Positions 17,970 through 28,113 of a stretch of DNA of 32,000 nt are shown here, piece by piece; within the stretch, counting starts at the first letter, position 1; each line of letters starts with the position of its first letter. Source of the stretch: Candidatus Heimdallarchaeota archaeon B3_Heim (lineage in GTDB: Archaea > Asgardarchaeota > Heimdallarchaeia > Hodarchaeales > Hodarchaeaceae); NCBI GenBank assembly GCA_003144275.1, contig NJBF01000020.1, positions 30,001 to 62,000 of the forward strand, read 5' to 3'. The notes under the pieces are model-generated. The model was not told where the DNA came from. It saw only the letters and a list, made by a program, of their open reading frames with translations, and ran no database searches. Made by a program: the position numbers and the translations under genes.

Positions 17970-18707
17970 TTGAATGAAAAAGAATTTTTCCGATTAGTAG
18001 GAAACGAAATAAGACGTGATATCCTTCGATCGGTCGCTCAAGAGCCAAAATATCTGTTTCAACTTTCTAAAGAGCTCAAGAGATCTCAACAATCACTACA
18101 AAGGCACCTCCAGTGCTTGTTGGAAAATGGTTGGTTGTCTCAAGAATTAGTAGAGGGACCTCATGGTCCAGCTCGCAAGCTATATCAAATAGCTAAGAAT
18201 CTATCGGTAAGAATTACGTTAAGTCAGCATTCGTTTGCTATAGACGTATTTGACATTCAAATCGGAAGAATTTCTGACCCCTTGGACGATTTCCAAACTC
18301 ATTTGAATGAAATAGGTAAAGATCTTTCATTGACACTTTCTCAAGGAATTCAAAAAGATCATCAGAATTATGCTGTCCAAATTCGTACCCTTAATACAAT
18401 TCTTGATAAACTAGGGTCAATAGAAAATTTCATTCTGAGCAAAAAGCTTACTGTCACAGGTCAATTAAATGAGACAATTTCGATGAAACTAGAAGGTGAC
18501 GATCATCGAAAAGATCGTGAATTGGCGTATACAATTTTTAGTAGCTCTGCCCCAATAAAAATAGATGTGATTCAAAAAGAAATAAAAACAAAGCGAACTG
18601 AGCTTCTAGCTTCCCTTAAACGACTGAATGAAAAGAATCTTTTACCCGAACGAGGAGTAGATTTAATGCAGAAGCTAGAAGTCACATTGAGTAGCCAAAC
18701 GGAGTGA
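17970..18707 (+). CDS. ArsR-like winged-HTH transcriptional regulator (COG1777, Phr/HSR1-like), probable heat-shock operon regulator
   Basis: 'VGNEIRRDIL...PKYLFQLSKEL...SLQRHLQCLLENGWL...GPARKLYQI'; lies 3 nt upstream of grpE. Confidence 0.72.
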   Translation: MNEKEFFRLVGNEIRRDILRSVAQEPKYLFQLSKELKRSQQSLQRHLQCLLENGWLSQELVEGPHGPARKLYQIAKNLSVRITLSQHSFAIDVFDIQIGRISDPLDDFQTHLNEIGKDLSLTLSQGIQKDHQNYAVQIRTLNTILDKLGSIENFILSKKLTVTGQLNETISMKLEGDDHRKDRELAYTIFSSSAPIKIDVIQKEIKTKRTELLASLKRLNEKNLLPERGVDLMQKLEVTLSSQTE

Positions 18708-18710
18708 TAA

Positions 18711-19346
18711 ATGCCAATGAAAGAACATACTCCACAGAATACAAAAAATAATTCAAATTTCTATGACATTGATGAACAAATTAAAGAATCTGACTCAAAA
18801 AAAGTCAAGATACCAACGTACAGTAAATCCATGGATAGCAAATCATCTCAGCAAAGCAAACAAGGGGAGCTAGAAAGCCAAATTGAGAAGCTTAAAGAAG
18901 AGTTAGTACAAAAGGAGAAGACTAATCAAAAAGATAAAGAGCGTTTTCTTCGTGCATTAGCTGATTATGAAAATCTTGAGAAGCGAACAAAAGCAGAAAG
19001 ATCAAGAATATTAAAAAATGCTAATGCTAATCTTCTGACGACATTTCTTGAACTAGCAGATACGTTAGAAAAAGCAAAATCAAGTTTTACTGATTCCTCG
19101 AATGCTAATACTGAATTAAAAGAGGGTTTTCTAGCAATTGAAAGACAGTTTTCAAGTATCTTGAACAATGCAGGAGTTGAAAGACTTGAATGTCTGGGGA
19201 CAAAATTCGATCCAGCTTTCCATGAAGCTGTGTTCGTAAGAAAAGATCCAGGAGAGGGAGAAGACATAATTTTGGAAGAAGTTCAGGCTGGTTACACACT
19301 GAACACTACCTTACTACGACCTAGTAAAGTGATAATTGCAAAATAA
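18711..19346 (+). CDS. grpE: Nucleotide exchange factor GrpE
   Basis: 'LRALADYENLEKR', 'FDPAFHEAV', 'QAGYTLNTTLLRPSKVIIAK'. Confidence 0.96.
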   Translation: MPMKEHTPQNTKNNSNFYDIDEQIKESDSKKVKIPTYSKSMDSKSSQQSKQGELESQIEKLKEELVQKEKTNQKDKERFLRALADYENLEKRTKAERSRILKNANANLLTTFLELADTLEKAKSSFTDSSNANTELKEGFLAIERQFSSILNNAGVERLECLGTKFDPAFHEAVFVRKDPGEGEDIILEEVQAGYTLNTTLLRPSKVIIAK

Positions 19347-19367
19347 TAATATTAAGGTGAACACAAG

Positions 19368-21200
19368 ATGCCTAGACCAATTGGTATAGATTTAGGAACA
19401 ACTTTTTCTGCCATAGCCACAATGGAAGGTGGAAAAGCAAAGATTATTCCCAATGCGGAAGGTCAGCGAATTACTCCCTCTGTAGTATCCATTTCGAAAG
19501 AGGGTGAACGAGTAGTTGGAATACAAGCTAAAAGACAAGCTGTTTCCAACCATGAGAGGACAGTTAGATCCATAAAAAGAGAGATGGGAACTAAGTATAC
19601 AGTGACTATTGATAGAAAGGTCTATAAACCTCCTGAAATAAGTGCAATGATTCTACAAAAACTAAAACGAGATGCTGAGGCTTATTTGGGTGAAACTATT
19701 ACCCAAGCAGTAATTACCGTTCCAGCATATTTTTCTGATTCCCAACGTCAAGCTACAAAGGATGCTGGTAAAATTGCGGGGTTAGAGGTTCTAAGAATTA
19801 TTAATGAACCCACAAGTGCTTCTTTAGCTTATGGAATGGACAAAGAAGAAGAATCGACAATTCTTGTTTTTGACTTGGGTGGTGGAACATTTGATGTTTC
19901 AATATTAGAATTATCCGAGGGTGTATTCGAGGTAAAAGCAACATCAGGTAATAATAGACTTGGGGGAGACGATTTTGATCAACGAATTATTGATTGGATG
20001 ATTGAAGAGTTTAAAAAACAAACTGGGTTGGATCTTTCGAAAGATCCAATGGCATTACAACGATTGAGAGATGCAGCAGAACAAGCAAAAATTGAGTTAT
20101 CACAAAAAACTTCCTCAGATATCAATTTACCATATGTTTATGCTGATAACACTGGACCTAAACATCTGAATCTTTCTCTTACAAGGTCAAAATTTGAAAT
20201 TATGATCGCTGATCTCATTGAAAAAGCTATGGGTCCTACTCGACAAGCCTTAGCCGATGCAAAACTTAAGCCTTCCGAAATTAATAAGATTTTACTCGTT
20301 GGTGGTTCTACTCGTGTTCCTGCCGTACAATCAGCATTACGTAACTATTTCAATAAAGAACTAACAAAAGAACTCAATCCTGATGAATGTGTAGCTCTGG
20401 GAGCAGCGATACAAGCCGCAATTATAACTGGTGAAGTAAAAGATGTTTTGTTGCTCGATGTTACTCCTTTGTCTTTAGGGATAGAAACTCTAGGTGGAGT
20501 ATTTACCAGGTTAATTGAAAGAAACACTACTATTCCAACTCATAAGAGTCAAATCTTCTCTACCGCAGCTGATAATCAACCATCAGTTGAAATTCACGTA
20601 TTACAAGGAGAAAGGAAAATGGCCACAGGGAATATAACCCTAGGCAAATTCCAATTGGTCGGAATACCTCCCGCTCCTAGAGGCGTTCCACAAATTGAGG
20701 TAAGCTTTGATATTGATGCCAATGGAATTGTAAATGTATCAGCAAAAGATCTTGGAACTGGAAATGAGCAGAAAATAACCATTAAGAGTGATAGTGGCCT
20801 TTCAGAAACAGATTTCAAGAGAATGGCTGAGGAAGCAGAAAAATACGAGGAAGAAGATAATAAAAGATTGGAAGAAGCTGAAGCACGAAATAAAGCAGAC
20901 TCACTTGTCTATCAAGTTGAAAAGATGATTAAGGATTTAGGTGAACAAGTGGATGCTACCACAAAAAGCAACGCAGAGAGTACGATTGAATCACTTAAAT
21001 CATCTTTACAGAGCGGAAATATTCCAGATGTCATTAAAAAGAGTGAAGATCTAGAGAAAATTGCACATGAATTAGCACAGAAACTTTATGCTCAACAAGC
21101 TCCGCAAGGAGCACCAGGTGCAGGTTTTCAAGGGGCTCCATCGGGTCAAGATGACTCCGAAGTTGTAGACGTTGATTATGAGATTGTCGATGAAGAGTAA
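19368..21200 (+). CDS. dnaK: Chaperone DnaK (Hsp70)
   Basis: [42 protein letters not shown]. It lacks the N-terminal-domain insert, as in archaeal and Gram-positive DnaK. Confidence 0.99.
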
Positions 21201-21232
21201 TTGAAATCGTAAGAATTTATCAGGTGATATGA

Positions 21233-22381
21233 CTGAGTAAAAACAAAAAAGATTACTATGAGGTTCTTGGTGTCCAAAGGGACGCAGATGTTAAAGATAT
21301 CAAGAAAGCCTTTCGAAAGTTAGCTCGGAAGTATCATCCTGATATGAACCCTGATGATCCAAGCGCAGAAGAGAAGTTTAAACAAGTAGCTGAAGCATTC
21401 GAAGTATTATCTGATAATGAAAAACGGCCTTTGTATGATCGATATGGTCATGAAGGCTTATCAGGCGCTTCATTCAGAGATTTTTCAGGCATGGGGCTAG
21501 ATGATCTTTTTGGTGGGTTTGGTATATTTGAAAATATCTTCAATGCCTTTGGAGGCGGAACTCAAGCTAGGACTTCCCGTTCTCGTGCGAGACGCGGTCA
21601 AGATGTAAGGCTTAACATTGATCTCTCTTTCGATGAGGCAATGAAGGGAATAAAGAAGTCAATTAAAGTCCCTAACTGGGCACAATGTCCTGTATGCCAT
21701 GGCAATAGAATTAAAAAAGGCGAATCACTCATTAAGTGTAGTACCTGTGGTGGAGTAGGAGAAGTGCGTCAGGTTCAGAGAACGGCCTTTGGACAGATGA
21801 TAAATATTACCACTTGCCCAAAATGCCGTGGAGAAGGTGAGAAGTTGAAAAAAGGGACAGAATGTGAGACTTGCAACGGAGTTGGCAAAGTTAAGCAAAC
21901 TAGAACTGTTGAAGCTCATGTCCCTGCTGGGGTTGATACAGGAATGCGTGTGGTAGTTCAAGGAGAGGGCAGACCTGGTGAGTTGGGAGGACCTTCTGGG
22001 GATTTATATTTGGTAGTAAACATATCCCCTCATCCTTTCTTCCAAAGAAATGGTGCGGAAATTCTTCTGGAATATCCGATTAGTTTTCTTGACGCCGTAT
22101 TAGGGACAAAACTTACAATTCCTACAATTAACGGAGACGAGAAAGTTACAATCAAACCAGGTACTGAATCTGGGAAAATAATTACCCTTAGAAAAAAAGG
22201 CGCCCCTAATCCTAATAGGTCTGGTCGTGGCGATATGCACATCGGAATTACTGTAAAATTTCCTAGTAAATTAGAAAAAAGTGTAAAACAAACATTACAG
22301 AAACTTCAAGAAGAAGACGAGGCAAAATATGTATTTAGAAATAATCCTGGATTAGCTAAATACTTAGGTTCCCAAAAATAA
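21233..22381 (+). CDS. dnaJ: Chaperone DnaJ (class A); start revised upstream of the ORF track call, probably CTG
   Basis: The frame stays open upstream of ATG 21344 and encodes the J-domain start (L/M)[36 protein letters not shown]. An in-frame TGA lies at 21230-21232. A G/F region and four CxxCxGxG-type repeats follow. Confidence 0.93.
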
Positions 22382-25424: not shown

Positions 25425-25780
25425 GCCTTTCTACTCCTTAGTTTACCCAGAATATTCTTGAAATTTCCTCTAACTCGAAAGATATTAGCATAATCGTCAA
25501 AGATGAACAGATAGGATTCCAGTAATAATGTTGATTATTGAAAATACGAAACAGATGTCAAAGATTTCTGGTGTGTTATTTTATGGAAATTTCATTCTCC
25601 ACTTATTTTAGATCGAAATATAGAATATCATCTAGATAATATCCGTATTGATAGAGGACATGAGATATGAATATTTGATGAAAATTAGATCCCTTTAACC
25701 CAAGGATCATTGTCATTATTTGAAAATCACACAGATTGAAAGTGAATTTTACCTTGAGTTCGTCTATTAGTAATACAACG

Positions 25781-27163
25781 ATGATGGAGTATTTTCGTCC
25801 AAGAGGAAAAATCGTTTGCCTTGGAGATAATATGAAATCTGAACTCGAACTGATAAAGAACATTCTAGACATAAACAATGATAAGAGAGTACCAGTTCTT
25901 CTGCTCAGTTCTTCCACTGATCTTAGTGAATATGCAGATCAAGTAGTTATCTTTGATTCGGATTCAACAATTGCTCAAGTTCATAATCTTTTGAACTCCT
26001 CATTTTTATTTTTTTTGTTTAATTCTTCTGAACATGGAATACTGAGAATTTTAGGTACAATCCTAGCCTCAATTGAATACAGAGGCACGATCCCTATTTT
26101 TATCGATACTGGTAGAGGTCTCCCTCCAGATCAAAAGAAAAATCTAGGTGAATGTTATTTTCACTTCGATTTATTAGAGGATATCAATCAAAAGAGTTTT
26201 TCAATATTTCTAGAAAACATAATATCTGTGTTATCACCTGTTTCTGGGCTTGGGATATCATTTTCAGATTTAATTCAAATTTTTGGAAAATCTAAAAGTC
26301 TTTTTTATGGAATTTCACAATCAACCCTCTTGGAACAAGTTCTAGAAGATTTAGTTGATCAAATTGGGGGAAAGCTTGTCCAAACATTGCCTGAAGAACT
26401 TGAAAATCTTGAAGCTATCTTTATCTCTGTTATTTCAGGAAAATCACTCAGTTTGCAAATTATGAATAAGATAACCTCAAAATTTGCTTCGACATTTGGT
26501 ATGGAATTCAATATCCATTTTTCTAATTCTGTAGAATCTGATCTCCAGGGTTACAAAACGATGGCCATACTTACAGATCTTCACCCAATAAATGAAATTT
26601 TTCCAGTTGCGAATCCCTTTCTAATGTTAGATTTTGATAATGAGACTGAAGACACTTCTGATGAATTATCCTTTTCAAATTCCAAAGAAAAACCATTGAA
26701 AGAAAATGAGGAGGATATGAGATTCCATATTTTGGGTAAAATATTTTCTGAATCTGAGGTTTACATATTTGATGATGGAGGGCTTCCTCTATTTGCTAGT
26801 CACCGTCCAGCTGGGCAAGAAGTTTGTCTATATACTGGATTATTCTCTGCAATTCAATCTATGAGTTCAGATTTAATTGGTCATTCTCCAGACCATCTTA
26901 CTGCGGGGGATAAAGAATGTGTATTTGTGTCACAGAAAGGTCCAAATCAAGTACAACTAAGAGGAGTTGCCATTTGTCAAGGCGGACAGGAAGAAACTGC
27001 TAGAAATGACCTCAAAGTTTCTATGGATTTAGTTCATCGTGTAATGCTACAGGGAGAACCAGAATACGCTATAAATGATAAAATCCAAGGCATTCTTGTT
27101 AAAAGTTTCCAGAAGGGAGAACTATCTAATGGCTTTGCCTTAGCAAAATATCAAGCAAGCTAA
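25781..27163 (+). CDS. Degenerate FtsZ/tubulin-fold protein fused to a C-terminal longin-like domain
   Basis: T7-like 'GLGISFSDL' and an FtsZ C-terminal-domain pattern; no GGGTGTG; acidic linker; longin-like 'VYIFDDGGLPLF...LYTGLFSAIQSMS'. Start placed at the first ATG (the ORF track starts at 25736). Confidence 0.55.
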   Translation: MMEYFRPRGKIVCLGDNMKSELELIKNILDINNDKRVPVLLLSSSTDLSEYADQVVIFDSDSTIAQVHNLLNSSFLFFLFNSSEHGILRILGTILASIEYRGTIPIFIDTGRGLPPDQKKNLGECYFHFDLLEDINQKSFSIFLENIISVLSPVSGLGISFSDLIQIFGKSKSLFYGISQSTLLEQVLEDLVDQIGGKLVQTLPEELENLEAIFISVISGKSLSLQIMNKITSKFASTFGMEFNIHFSNSVESDLQGYKTMAILTDLHPINEIFPVANPFLMLDFDNETEDTSDELSFSNSKEKPLKENEEDMRFHILGKIFSESEVYIFDDGGLPLFASHRPAGQEVCLYTGLFSAIQSMSSDLIGHSPDHLTAGDKECVFVSQKGPNQVQLRGVAICQGGQEETARNDLKVSMDLVHRVMLQGEPEYAINDKIQGILVKSFQKGELSNGFALAKYQAS

Positions 27164-27177
27164 CTTATTTCTACAGA

Positions 27178-27813
27178 TTATTTAGAAATAGGATTAATAG
27201 CTTCATTTGTTTGGTAACGTTCATAAACTTTTTCAACATAACCAAACTCTTCAATTAGTTCATGAATTCTTGTCGATTCAATATAGATTTCAGAGGTCCA
27301 TAAAATCAAGTACGCAGTAATCATAGGCAATTGAGGGGTAACTGATTCCTGTATTTCAAATAGGATCTGTTTACGTAGAGCGAGCTCTGTTTCATACATA
27401 TCAATTATTTCTCGAATGGTATTTTCAGCTTGATCTATAATCTCTAAATCATGAGGCCATTCATTATTATCTTTTACTGCTCGATTTTTCGCTGGTTGAA
27501 GAATATCACAACGAAAGCTCTGTTCTATTTTTCTCATCTCGCGAATTACATCTTTAAAATGAGTTAAATAAGCATTCAATTCGGTGATATGCCTATTGAT
27601 AGATTCTGCGAGATTATAAGCTAGTCTGCCCTGAACGTCATCAAACTTAGTCTTTATTACTTCGGAAAAGACATCTGATCTTTGAGTCAGGTTAAATCGT
27701 GATAAGATATTGAGTACCATGTTTACAGTTCGTAACGACTGGCCTTGAACGGTGGTCCACTTTTTTTGAGAGATTTGTAACCTCTTTTTAAAGACCCGAA
27801 TGCTCTGACTCAT
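27178..27813 (-). CDS. Alpha-helical protein resembling eukaryotic C1orf109/AIRIM (CK2-substrate family)
   Basis: 211 aa; 'KKW...LN', 'FDDVQGRL', 'MYETELALRKQIL' and a late Trp match the recalled family pattern. Confidence 0.5.
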   Translation of the reverse strand: MSQSIRVFKKRLQISQKKWTTVQGQSLRTVNMVLNILSRFNLTQRSDVFSEVIKTKFDDVQGRLAYNLAESINRHITELNAYLTHFKDVIREMRKIEQSFRCDILQPAKNRAVKDNNEWPHDLEIIDQAENTIREIIDMYETELALRKQILFEIQESVTPQLPMITAYLILWTSEIYIESTRIHELIEEFGYVEKVYERYQTNEAINPISK

Positions 27814-27925: not shown

Positions 27926-28113
27926 GATTGAGGCACAAAATAATTCCGTTCTGAAAGACTTACCCAAATGGGACTGATAAGAATAATCAAGAAGAATTAT
28001 TCGAAACAACCGTTGGAGCTGTTCTTCCTGATTCATCGACGCGTGCCTGCTCTGATGCAGGTCTTACCACCTCTCCACAGACATTTAAGGTCTCCGCAGA
28101 ACTCTCGGCGACC
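27926..28113 (-). ncRNA. Predicted TnpB omegaRNA (reRNA) scaffold plus flanking guide
   Basis: Hairpins at 28089-28113, 28046-28061 (CCTGC-N6-GCAGG) and 27981-28002 overlap the tnpB 3' end and run to the right end. The guide would be the host flank AATTATTTTGTGCCTCAATC. Confidence 0.45.

Follow-up and report, generated by a model that had tools for sequence, protein, structure and literature searches.

What does a gene encode whose product resembles FtsZ in outline, lacks the loops that hold its nucleotide, and ends in a domain of the kind on which small GTPases dock? The question is raised by a plus-strand gene in a 32,000-nucleotide stretch of DNA (the window, to which all window positions refer) from contig NJBF01000020.1 of Candidatus Heimdallarchaeota archaeon B3_Heim, an Asgard archaeon of the Hodarchaeales. 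A first interpretation, made from the letters without database searches (the sequence-only reading), had taken the product, here called P0001, for a GTPase-dead FtsZ/tubulin-fold domain joined through an acidic linker to a longin-like domain, and the motif strings that it quoted are present in the translation. Our analysis divides P0001 into an FtsZ-derived pseudo-GTPase domain, an acidic linker of ~30 residues and a conserved longin/Roadblock domain, a two-domain reading to which we give a probability of about 0.9. The features of the gene, by window position, are:

25781 to 27163, plus strand: the whole gene, 460 amino acids plus stop from the first ATG at 25781, encoding P0001 (open reading frame list, translation and 68 homologues).
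25781 to 26584, plus strand: FtsZ-fold domain, amino acids 1-268, with a Rossmann-like N-subdomain, core helix H7 (amino acids 134-151) and a C-subdomain (AlphaFold2, Foldseek, VIA-align and profiles).
25823 to 25840, plus strand: degenerate T1 loop GDNMKS (amino acids 15-20) in place of GGGGNN, with only G15 conserved over 47 orthologues.
26021 to 26041, plus strand: degenerate T4 'tubulin signature' NSSEHGI (amino acids 81-87) in place of GGGTGTG (alignment and column counts).
26246 to 26269, plus strand: degenerate T7 loop with the beginning of H8, GLGISFSD (amino acids 156-163), in place of xxNLDFxD (HMMER alignment to 2vam, MAFFT and column counts).
26609 to 26704, plus strand: acidic linker, amino acids 277-308, variable in length and sequence, with a predicted local distance difference test score (pLDDT) of 25-41 and a conservation of 0.31.
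26708 to 27115, plus strand: longin/Roadblock-superfamily domain, amino acids 310-445, alpha-beta-beta-alpha-beta-beta-beta-alpha-alpha, the most conserved part of P0001.
27116 to 27160, plus strand: C-terminal tail with an invariant terminal Ala-Ser and pLDDT <50.

The N-terminal half is predicted to adopt a complete FtsZ fold. In the AlphaFold2 model, which draws on 47 orthologues, pLDDT is ~90 over amino acids 8-268. All 50 of the PDB matches listed by Foldseek for this model are FtsZ, with E values down to 5e-12, and AlphaFold DB clusters likewise point to FtsZ. In VIA-align, model residues 1-267 superpose on residues 4-315 of FtsZ (Z 19.8, root-mean-square deviation 3.2 Å, 255 residues), an alignment that covers both subdomains and H7, and the match to CetZ is weaker (Z 16.9). 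The predicted structure has the Rossmann-like N-subdomain, H7 and C-subdomain in FtsZ topology that mark the FtsZ/tubulin superfamily, as the sequence-only reading had proposed for this half. Judged by profile comparison, the sequence signal to FtsZ is weak but specific. The sole Pfam match in P0001 is FtsZ_C (PF12327), with an E value of 0.09 and 13.5 bits, under the gathering score of 27; Pfam Tubulin (PF00091) is unmatched, and a single-sequence phmmer search of P0001 against PDB sequences gave no match. Against all PDB sequences, the P0001 family profile found 27 at E ≤ 10, of which 26 were FtsZ (best E 0.011). HMMER aligned residues 158-312 of P0001 with residues 198-351 of B. subtilis FtsZ (2vam), and hhalign matched the N-domain profile to a small FtsZ alignment over amino acids 153-276 (FtsZ 237-364; E 1.5e-4, probability 51%).

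In FtsZ, the T1 and T4 loops hold the phosphates of the nucleotide, and T7 of one subunit switches on hydrolysis in its neighbour. All three motifs are replaced across all 47 orthologues, the set over which column conservation and residue counts were computed. We compared the motifs by aligning P0001 in MAFFT to genuine FtsZ sequences, B3_Heim's own among them. At S1/T1, where KIVCLGDNMKS of P0001 is aligned under VQVIGVGGGGNNA, the canonical VIGVGGGGNNA corresponds to IVC[IL]G[DE]xLxx in the P0001 family; the first glycine, G15, alone is conserved and the GGGxGxN pattern is gone. At S4/T4, P0001 FLFFLFNSSEHGIL lies under FtsZ LVFITCGLGGGTGTG, and the canonical FITCGLGGGTGTG has given way to F[LI]F[IL]FNSS[ED]xGI, with N81, S82, S83 and an acidic residue 84 conserved. 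This last position, in the former phosphate loop, is E or D in 47 of 47 orthologues, and [SAG]GGTG[SAT]G is not found. At T7/H8, P0001 SGLGISFSDLIQIF is aligned under FtsZ PQLVNLDFSDV. The canonical PQL[IV]NLDFxDV here reads SG[FL]G[VI]SFS[DN]L, with F161, F168 and G169 invariant. The T7 asparagine and the first catalytic aspartate have become Gly158 and Ser160, the second aspartate (position 163) is kept in only 29 of the 47, and the pattern NxDxx(D/E) is lost. The absence of the GGxG (T1) and GGGTGTG (T4) loops, which the sequence-only reading had pointed out, is thus borne out in the alignments, and T7 proves degenerate as well. Given the loss of T1, T4 and T7, P0001 is very probably a pseudo-GTPase, neither binding GTP nor activating a GTPase. 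Within the N-domain, conservation is highest in the T7/H8 segment (0.72), and to judge by its column pattern the nucleotide pocket has been remodelled, not abandoned.

In eukaryotes, the longin/Roadblock fold provides a platform on which small GTPases dock. A separate AlphaFold2 model of the C-terminal domain of P0001, from 21 sequences, has a pLDDT of 75.8 and a predicted template modelling score of 0.72, with helices (H) and strands (E) at H2-16, E20-25, E31-34, H42-60, E67-70, E73-81, E87-95, H99-118 and H123-139. It shows the alpha/beta/alpha sandwich of the superfamily, whose antiparallel sheet has five strands (order beta-beta-alpha-beta-beta-beta). Foldseek matches in the PDB (Foldseek probability 1.0) include the longin domain of Mon1-Ccz1 (E 5e-4) and Sec22b (1e-3), then TRAPP subunits, dynein Roadblock, Asgard Roadblock and longin structures, MglB and AP sigma subunits. 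A Foldseek-independent VIA scan of 48,161 chains placed Fuzzy highest (Z 8.8, 124 residues), followed by a BLOC-3 HPS subunit (8.5), a LAMTOR-like chain (8.4), MON1A (8.3) and TRAPP Bet5/sedlin (8.2), and then by VAMP7 and Sec22 longin domains, SRX, MglB and Asgard Roadblocks. Taken alone, these Z values (8-8.8) are moderate, but the leading rows for this model almost all belong to one superfamily. Profilins, tried as an alternative fold, scored lower (Z 6.2-6.6), and by the criteria of a study of Asgard small GTPases and Roadblock proteins (PMC10933270) the domain's long central helix agrees better with Roadblock/longin. In the ESM Atlas, the domain retrieves eukaryotic Fuz_longin_1 clusters and Asgard proteins.

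Sequence comparisons of this domain give fainter signals. Its profile reaches dynein Roadblock LC7 among PDB sequences at E 0.016, with Roadblock LC7 and TRAPPC1 the only interpretable matches, and a broader profile gave weaker values (0.085 and 0.45, respectively). In Pfam, the C-terminal half of P0001 has no match when searched alone, and none of Robl_LC7, Longin, Fuz_longin_1 or Sybindin rises above threshold. Two relatives approach the Fuz_longin_1 cut-off of 26.1 bits: P0070 (E 0.0018, 18.9 bits) and a stand-alone Asgard protein at locus L032 (5e-5, 23.9 bits), the latter also matching Sybindin and Intu_longin_1. Longin domains, according to the same study (PMC10933270), lack an N-terminal helix and have two C-terminal helices, one of which replaces the Roadblock N-helix. 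Our model has both a Roadblock-type N-terminal helix and two longin-type C-terminal helices, and in the VIA scan the Z scores of longin matches (spanning model residues 18-153) and Roadblock matches (8-117) are tied. Because the model combines features of both, we assign the domain at the level of the longin/Roadblock superfamily only. The earlier description of this half as longin-like is therefore better read at that level; only structures of this superfamily match it.

Both domains have been kept over considerable divergence. P0001 has 68 homologues at 48-92% identity; those with names come from Hodarchaeales/Heimdallarchaeia metagenome-assembled genomes and are annotated 'hypothetical protein' throughout. 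With the C-domain profile, one orthologue per genome, free of internal stops, was found in every other genome of the GTDB genus (21 of 21; E 1e-56 to 1e-76), and diverged forms occur in both genomes of a sister family (E ~1e-20). Mean column conservation is 0.66 over amino acids 5-268 and 0.82 over amino acids 311-445, and the most distant orthologues share 44% pairwise identity in the N-domain, 10-19% in the linker and ~70% in the C-domain. Because conservation is specific to the domains and the linker varies, both folded domains are under purifying selection and the linker is not, with the C-domain the more constrained. The acidic linker foreseen by the sequence-only reading is present and probably disordered. 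At the end of the C-terminal tail, A459 and S460 (window 27155-27160) are invariant in 47 of 47 orthologues. More distant fusions end in AS, AF or AY, and Arf-longin fusions carry YASNLL at the C-terminus. To judge from these sequences, the Ala-Ser end may be a conserved terminal recognition motif.

Where did such a fusion come from? An exhaustive HMMER scan of 1.84 billion representatives returned few non-orthologous relatives of the C-domain, and the nearest is P0076, a protein of 572 amino acids (E 5.8e-9 over the C-domain; 30-32% identity for proteins of the P0076 type). Its order of domains is that of P0001, FtsZ followed by linker and C-terminal domain, with the terminal Ala-Ser common to both. 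Its FtsZ is canonical, with GGGGNN and GGGTGTG intact and strong Pfam matches to Tubulin (4e-40) and FtsZ_C (1.5e-19). Five more proteins of this type (P0080-P0084) derive, like P0076, from uncultured Hodarchaeales-labelled metagenome-assembled genomes; 'cell division protein FtsZ' is the name given to three of the five, another is a 'hypothetical protein' and the last is unnamed. Records of the P0076 type list Tubulin and FtsZ_C only, leaving the C-terminal part with no Pfam domain. P0070, which is 34% identical to P0001 over its full length, and P0078, with 515 amino acids, a sub-threshold FtsZ_C match (E 0.006) and degenerate motifs, appear by sequence to be further diverged dead forms. Comparisons by hhalign to two single distant sequences, P0078 and a family-f2 protein at locus L028, did not reach significance and so do not show an FtsZ-like N-domain in either protein. 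Most likely, as far as these sequences allow, P0001 descends from an ancestral fusion of an active FtsZ to a longin/Roadblock domain, with catalysis lost later in the B3_Heim lineage. All 24 genomes of the order have one canonical FtsZ alongside the dead form. In B3_Heim, the canonical FtsZ gene lies on contig C57 (L001:1396-2667). Most Heimdallarchaeia genomes have one FtsZ_C gene, with two in only one family, and because of this prevailing single copy P0001 cannot be claimed as the replacement of a lost FtsZ2. The B3_Heim genome also contains a second tubulin-superfamily gene (L004:640-2019, minus strand, contig C96), whose 459-amino-acid product carries GIGECGSN and GGGTGCG, matches Pfam Tubulin at 63.8 bits, and by these motifs is tubulin- or CetZ-like and not FtsZ-like.

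Small GTPases are connected with this domain type in two ways. Outside the order, the C-domain profile (E 1e-11 to 1e-4) finds proteins of ~300 amino acids in which an Arf-like GTPase (Pfam Arf, 2e-32) lies upstream of the same type of domain, as well as stand-alone Asgard proteins of ~130-160 amino acids. Longin/Roadblock domains of Asgard archaea are commonly fused to other modules, among them Arf-like GTPases, TPR and TrmB, and fusions of small GTPases to them are a known Asgard architecture, as described by Tran et al. 2024 (PMC10933270). The FtsZ fusions repeat the logic of a GTPase fold upstream of a platform domain with a different GTPase superfamily. In addition, both of the available P0076-type loci have a Ras/Rab-like GTPase gene immediately upstream of the fusion gene and read from the same strand, in the order TFIIB (minus), GTPase (plus), FtsZ-longin (plus) and EamA (plus):

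L037:4814-5380, plus strand: Ras/Rab-like GTPase gene beside an active FtsZ-longin gene, with WDLAGQ and ETSAK motifs.
L048:5123-5695, plus strand: Ras/Rab-like GTPase gene beside an active FtsZ-longin gene, with WDLAGQ and ETSAK motifs.

In the B3_Heim genome, which has 28 small-GTPase matches, the best homologue of this Rab-like GTPase (66% identity; locus L051 on contig C70) has no FtsZ-like or TFIIB neighbour. About 1 kb from that homologue lies an open reading frame of 129 amino acids (L051:3079-3468, minus strand) with a below-threshold match to Robl_LC7 (E 0.003).

A link to FtsZ itself is weakly suggested by co-folding. The N-domain of P0001 with the core of the genome's own FtsZ scored 0.53, compared with 0.01 for the best control, which reaches the mark set by the tool and earns its verdict 'weak support'. 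At least 89% of the contacts agree between runs, and the pLDDT of the partner is at least 79. In the calibration, whose counts are only rough here since custom alignments were used, 58 of 80 solved complexes passed the mark, as did 2 of 110 mismatched pairs; at scores of 0.60 or below, passes came from just 7 of the 80 solved complexes and from both of those mismatches. Because FtsZ-FtsZ complexes are among the solved structures, the pass may reflect mere likeness to them.

These results bring us to what P0001 might do. As a tentative proposal, which we hold at somewhat below even odds, the dead FtsZ domain would be an FtsZ-binding, non-polymerising adaptor. Without catalysis it should be unable to propagate a GTP-dependent filament, and its conserved T7/H8 face could dock on the single canonical FtsZ of the genome, at the end or the side of a filament. 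Longin/Roadblock domains usually dimerise. That of P0001 would probably do so too, and could offer a platform to one of the many Ras-superfamily small GTPases. In this way, signalling by small GTPases at the membrane would be linked to the FtsZ cytoskeleton. The sequence-only reading had suggested that the protein caps or recruits FtsZ and links it to small GTPases, which stays conditional here, with the co-fold leaning towards it; the link to SNARE machinery that it also raised finds no support. A wider version of the idea is that Hodarchaeales and their relatives have a module wiring a tubulin-superfamily filament to a small-GTPase platform, in an active form beside a Rab-like GTPase and in a pseudo-GTPase form that caps, nucleates or anchors FtsZ under small-GTPase control. 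We regard this as speculative and rather unlikely.

Several observations weigh against the adaptor proposal or parts of its basis. The GTPase subdomain has no sequence similarity to FtsZ that hhalign can detect, so that the match there comes from the predicted fold. The gene is monocistronic, the only plus-strand gene between opposite-strand neighbours unrelated to division or GTPases. The GTPases at L037 and L048 are 89% identical close relatives and, because both genomes are close, their adjacency to FtsZ-longin counts as about one observation. No gene of the P0076 type was found in the B3_Heim genome or elsewhere among the 24 genomes of the order. Finally, conservation in the N-domain is among its highest at residues of the former pocket (G15, D53-Q54, N81-S82-S83 and D109-T-G), a pattern that may mean that the remodelled pocket binds another ligand or forms an interface of its own.

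The main rival, possible though on the doubtful side, is that P0001 is a platform only. Its C-domain would work as a guanine nucleotide exchange factor, a GTPase-activating protein or an anchor, and the dead FtsZ domain, acting away from FtsZ, would be an inert scaffold, an oligomerisation module or a new surface. That the C-domain is far more conserved than the N-domain (0.82 compared with 0.66; 70% compared with 44% identity) speaks for this explanation, and the pocket's own family-specific conserved residues, the weak support given by the FtsZ co-fold and the common fusion of longin/Roadblock domains to Arf-like GTPases, TPR and TrmB in Asgard archaea all suit it. It sits less well with purifying selection on a complete FtsZ fold, T7/H8 face included, throughout the genus, and with nearest relatives that hold a working FtsZ at the same position.

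A further alternative is that the FtsZ-like domain polymerises with itself without needing GTP, giving a static filament or ring that displays the longin/Roadblock domains. The intact FtsZ fold speaks for this, as do family-specific conserved residues on both longitudinal faces. The longitudinal interface of FtsZ and tubulin is built around the nucleotide, yet the phosphate loop of P0001 has a fixed acidic residue, and self-assembly of this kind seems improbable. That same acidic side chain in T4, together with the loss of all glycine-rich phosphate-binding elements and the unmatched Pfam Tubulin model, makes it very improbable that P0001 is a non-canonical enzyme whose remodelled pocket (G15, D53-Q54, N81-S82-S83-E84 and D109-T110-G111) binds GTP or something else, even with pocket-lining positions among the most conserved of the N-domain. 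As for a chance open reading frame, or an FtsZ pseudogene drifting to loss, the missing catalytic motifs are the one thing in favour. Intact orthologues with no internal stops in 21 of 21 genomes of the genus, the 68 homologues at 48-92% identity, conservation that follows the domains and spares the linker, and synteny down to 34% identity reduce its probability to almost nothing.

The reading frame is uninterrupted over window 25736-27163 on the plus strand, by the open reading frame list and translation, and offers earlier starts, listed here with the gene that follows P0001:

TTG at 25736, GTG at 25742 and TTG at 25754, plus strand: alternative in-frame starts, all 3' of the TGA at 25721.
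27178 to 27813, minus strand: convergent C1orf109-like gene directly downstream of the P0001 gene, 211 amino acids, Pfam CA109-like (ribosome biogenesis), E 1.2e-10, above threshold.

An upstream start would add SSSISNTT, and because this extension resembles the N-terminus MNSSISHTS of P0014, a 65%-identical orthologue, the true start may lie 27-45 nucleotides upstream of 25781. This ambiguity, the single correction to the sequence-only reading, leaves the other results on P0001 unaffected. Gene order around P0001 runs HSP70, DnaJ, radical SAM, ArcS-like, P0001, C1orf109-like and a protein of ~715 amino acids, the ArcS-like gene (DUF5591, TGT_C2 and PUA) being the divergent neighbour on one side. 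The neighbourhood is syntenic in orthologous loci at 49-54% identity, and the convergent C1orf109-like gene stands beside the P0001 orthologue even at 34% identity; the loci compared for this adjacency, over the two levels of identity together, are L035, L036 and L049. No gene of the neighbourhood hints at a role in division.

Two other features of the region were recorded. Between the C1orf109-like gene and the gene for a ~718-amino-acid protein, a TnpB/IS605 OrfB gene (HTH_OrfB_IS605, OrfB_IS605 and Cas12f1-like TNB) occupies window 27987-29267 on the minus strand. It is missing at the equivalent position in L035, L036 and L049, the local GC content is 0.40 compared with ~0.35, and it looks like an insertion specific to the B3_Heim genome. 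Upstream of the P0001 gene, a block comprising a helix-turn-helix regulator, grpE, dnaK and dnaJ lies at window 17970-22381 on the plus strand; the position of dnaK-dnaJ relative to the P0001 gene is kept in L035 and L036. The DnaJ open reading frame as listed matches the 63-position J-domain model over its final 31 positions only (33-63).

The sequence-only reading knew of no described protein with this architecture, and that holds within the literature we searched, which left most subscription journals outside its scope and in which no description of an FtsZ-longin or FtsZ-Roadblock fusion was found. Among AlphaFold DB clusters, no row aligned across both domains of P0001 with an acceptable root-mean-square deviation. 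Searched for the relevant terms, an FtsZ/tubulin family survey (PMC9871819), a study of Odinarchaeota FtsZ (PMC12583498), the Asgard small-GTPase/Roadblock study (PMC10933270) and an Asgard structural-modelling survey (PMC12962969) make no mention of such a fusion. Both folds and GTPase-platform fusions were already known; what is new is FtsZ as the partner, and its pseudo-enzyme state.

Two building blocks of eukaryotic cell organisation, FtsZ/tubulin filaments and longin/Roadblock platforms for small GTPases, are already found in Asgard archaea, and the Hodarchaeales have been proposed to rank with the closest relatives of eukaryotes. Covalent fusion of these two systems would count as direct genomic evidence of a functional connection between them that predates eukaryotes. 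The fusion is conserved through a Hodarchaeales genus, with catalytically active and dead versions in existence. The dead version would be a natural tubulin-superfamily pseudo-GTPase in a prokaryote and a candidate filament capper, nucleator or adaptor. The active version is annotated as plain 'FtsZ', and surveys by product name or by Pfam Tubulin/FtsZ_C would miss its extra domain. If the proposal is true, there would be a prokaryotic precedent both for GTPase-regulated coupling of cytoskeleton to membrane and for non-catalytic regulators of the tubulin family.

In comparison with known systems, P0001 shares with FtsZ (PDB 8h1o, 2q1x, 1w58 and the Odinarchaeota FtsZ1 9v7v) the same two-subdomain core fold (Z 17.6-19.8 over ~250 residues), with sequence similarity detectable from T7 through the C-terminal subdomain. 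It differs in having lost the T1 GGGGNN, T4 GGGTGTG and T7 NxDxxD motifs present in FtsZ, in a core that is ~40 residues shorter, and in carrying a linker and a folded longin/Roadblock domain instead of the usual C-terminal tail with its anchor-binding peptide. Proteins of the P0076 type, in contrast to P0001, have a canonical FtsZ domain that passes Pfam thresholds, a length of ~572 amino acids and an adjoining Ras/Rab-like GTPase gene.

For the other half, the best structural matches to amino acids 327-460 are Mon1, Fuzzy, HPS1 longin domain 1 (Fuz_longin_1), TRAPP Bet5/sedlin and SNARE longin domains (Z 8.1-8.8, 106-127 residues). Unlike tri-longin RabGEF subunits, P0001 has a single domain and not an array, with an extra N-terminal helix that is absent from longin domains. 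That helix is common to P0001 and the Roadblock/LC7-MglB-LAMTOR group, in which Z reaches 8.4 for a LAMTOR-like chain, 6.6-7.0 for Asgard Roadblock and 6.3-6.9 for MglB, whereas the two C-terminal helices and the unmatched Pfam Robl_LC7 model set P0001 apart from Roadblock/LC7. Alike in design are the Asgard fusions of an Arf-like GTPase to a longin/Roadblock domain, which have the same type of C-domain (profile E down to 2e-11) and share its FDxGG[LV]PL and GLFSAI motifs. Their GTPase is a Ras-superfamily P-loop protein, while the corresponding part of P0001 has a tubulin-superfamily fold and is, by its lost motifs, catalytically dead.

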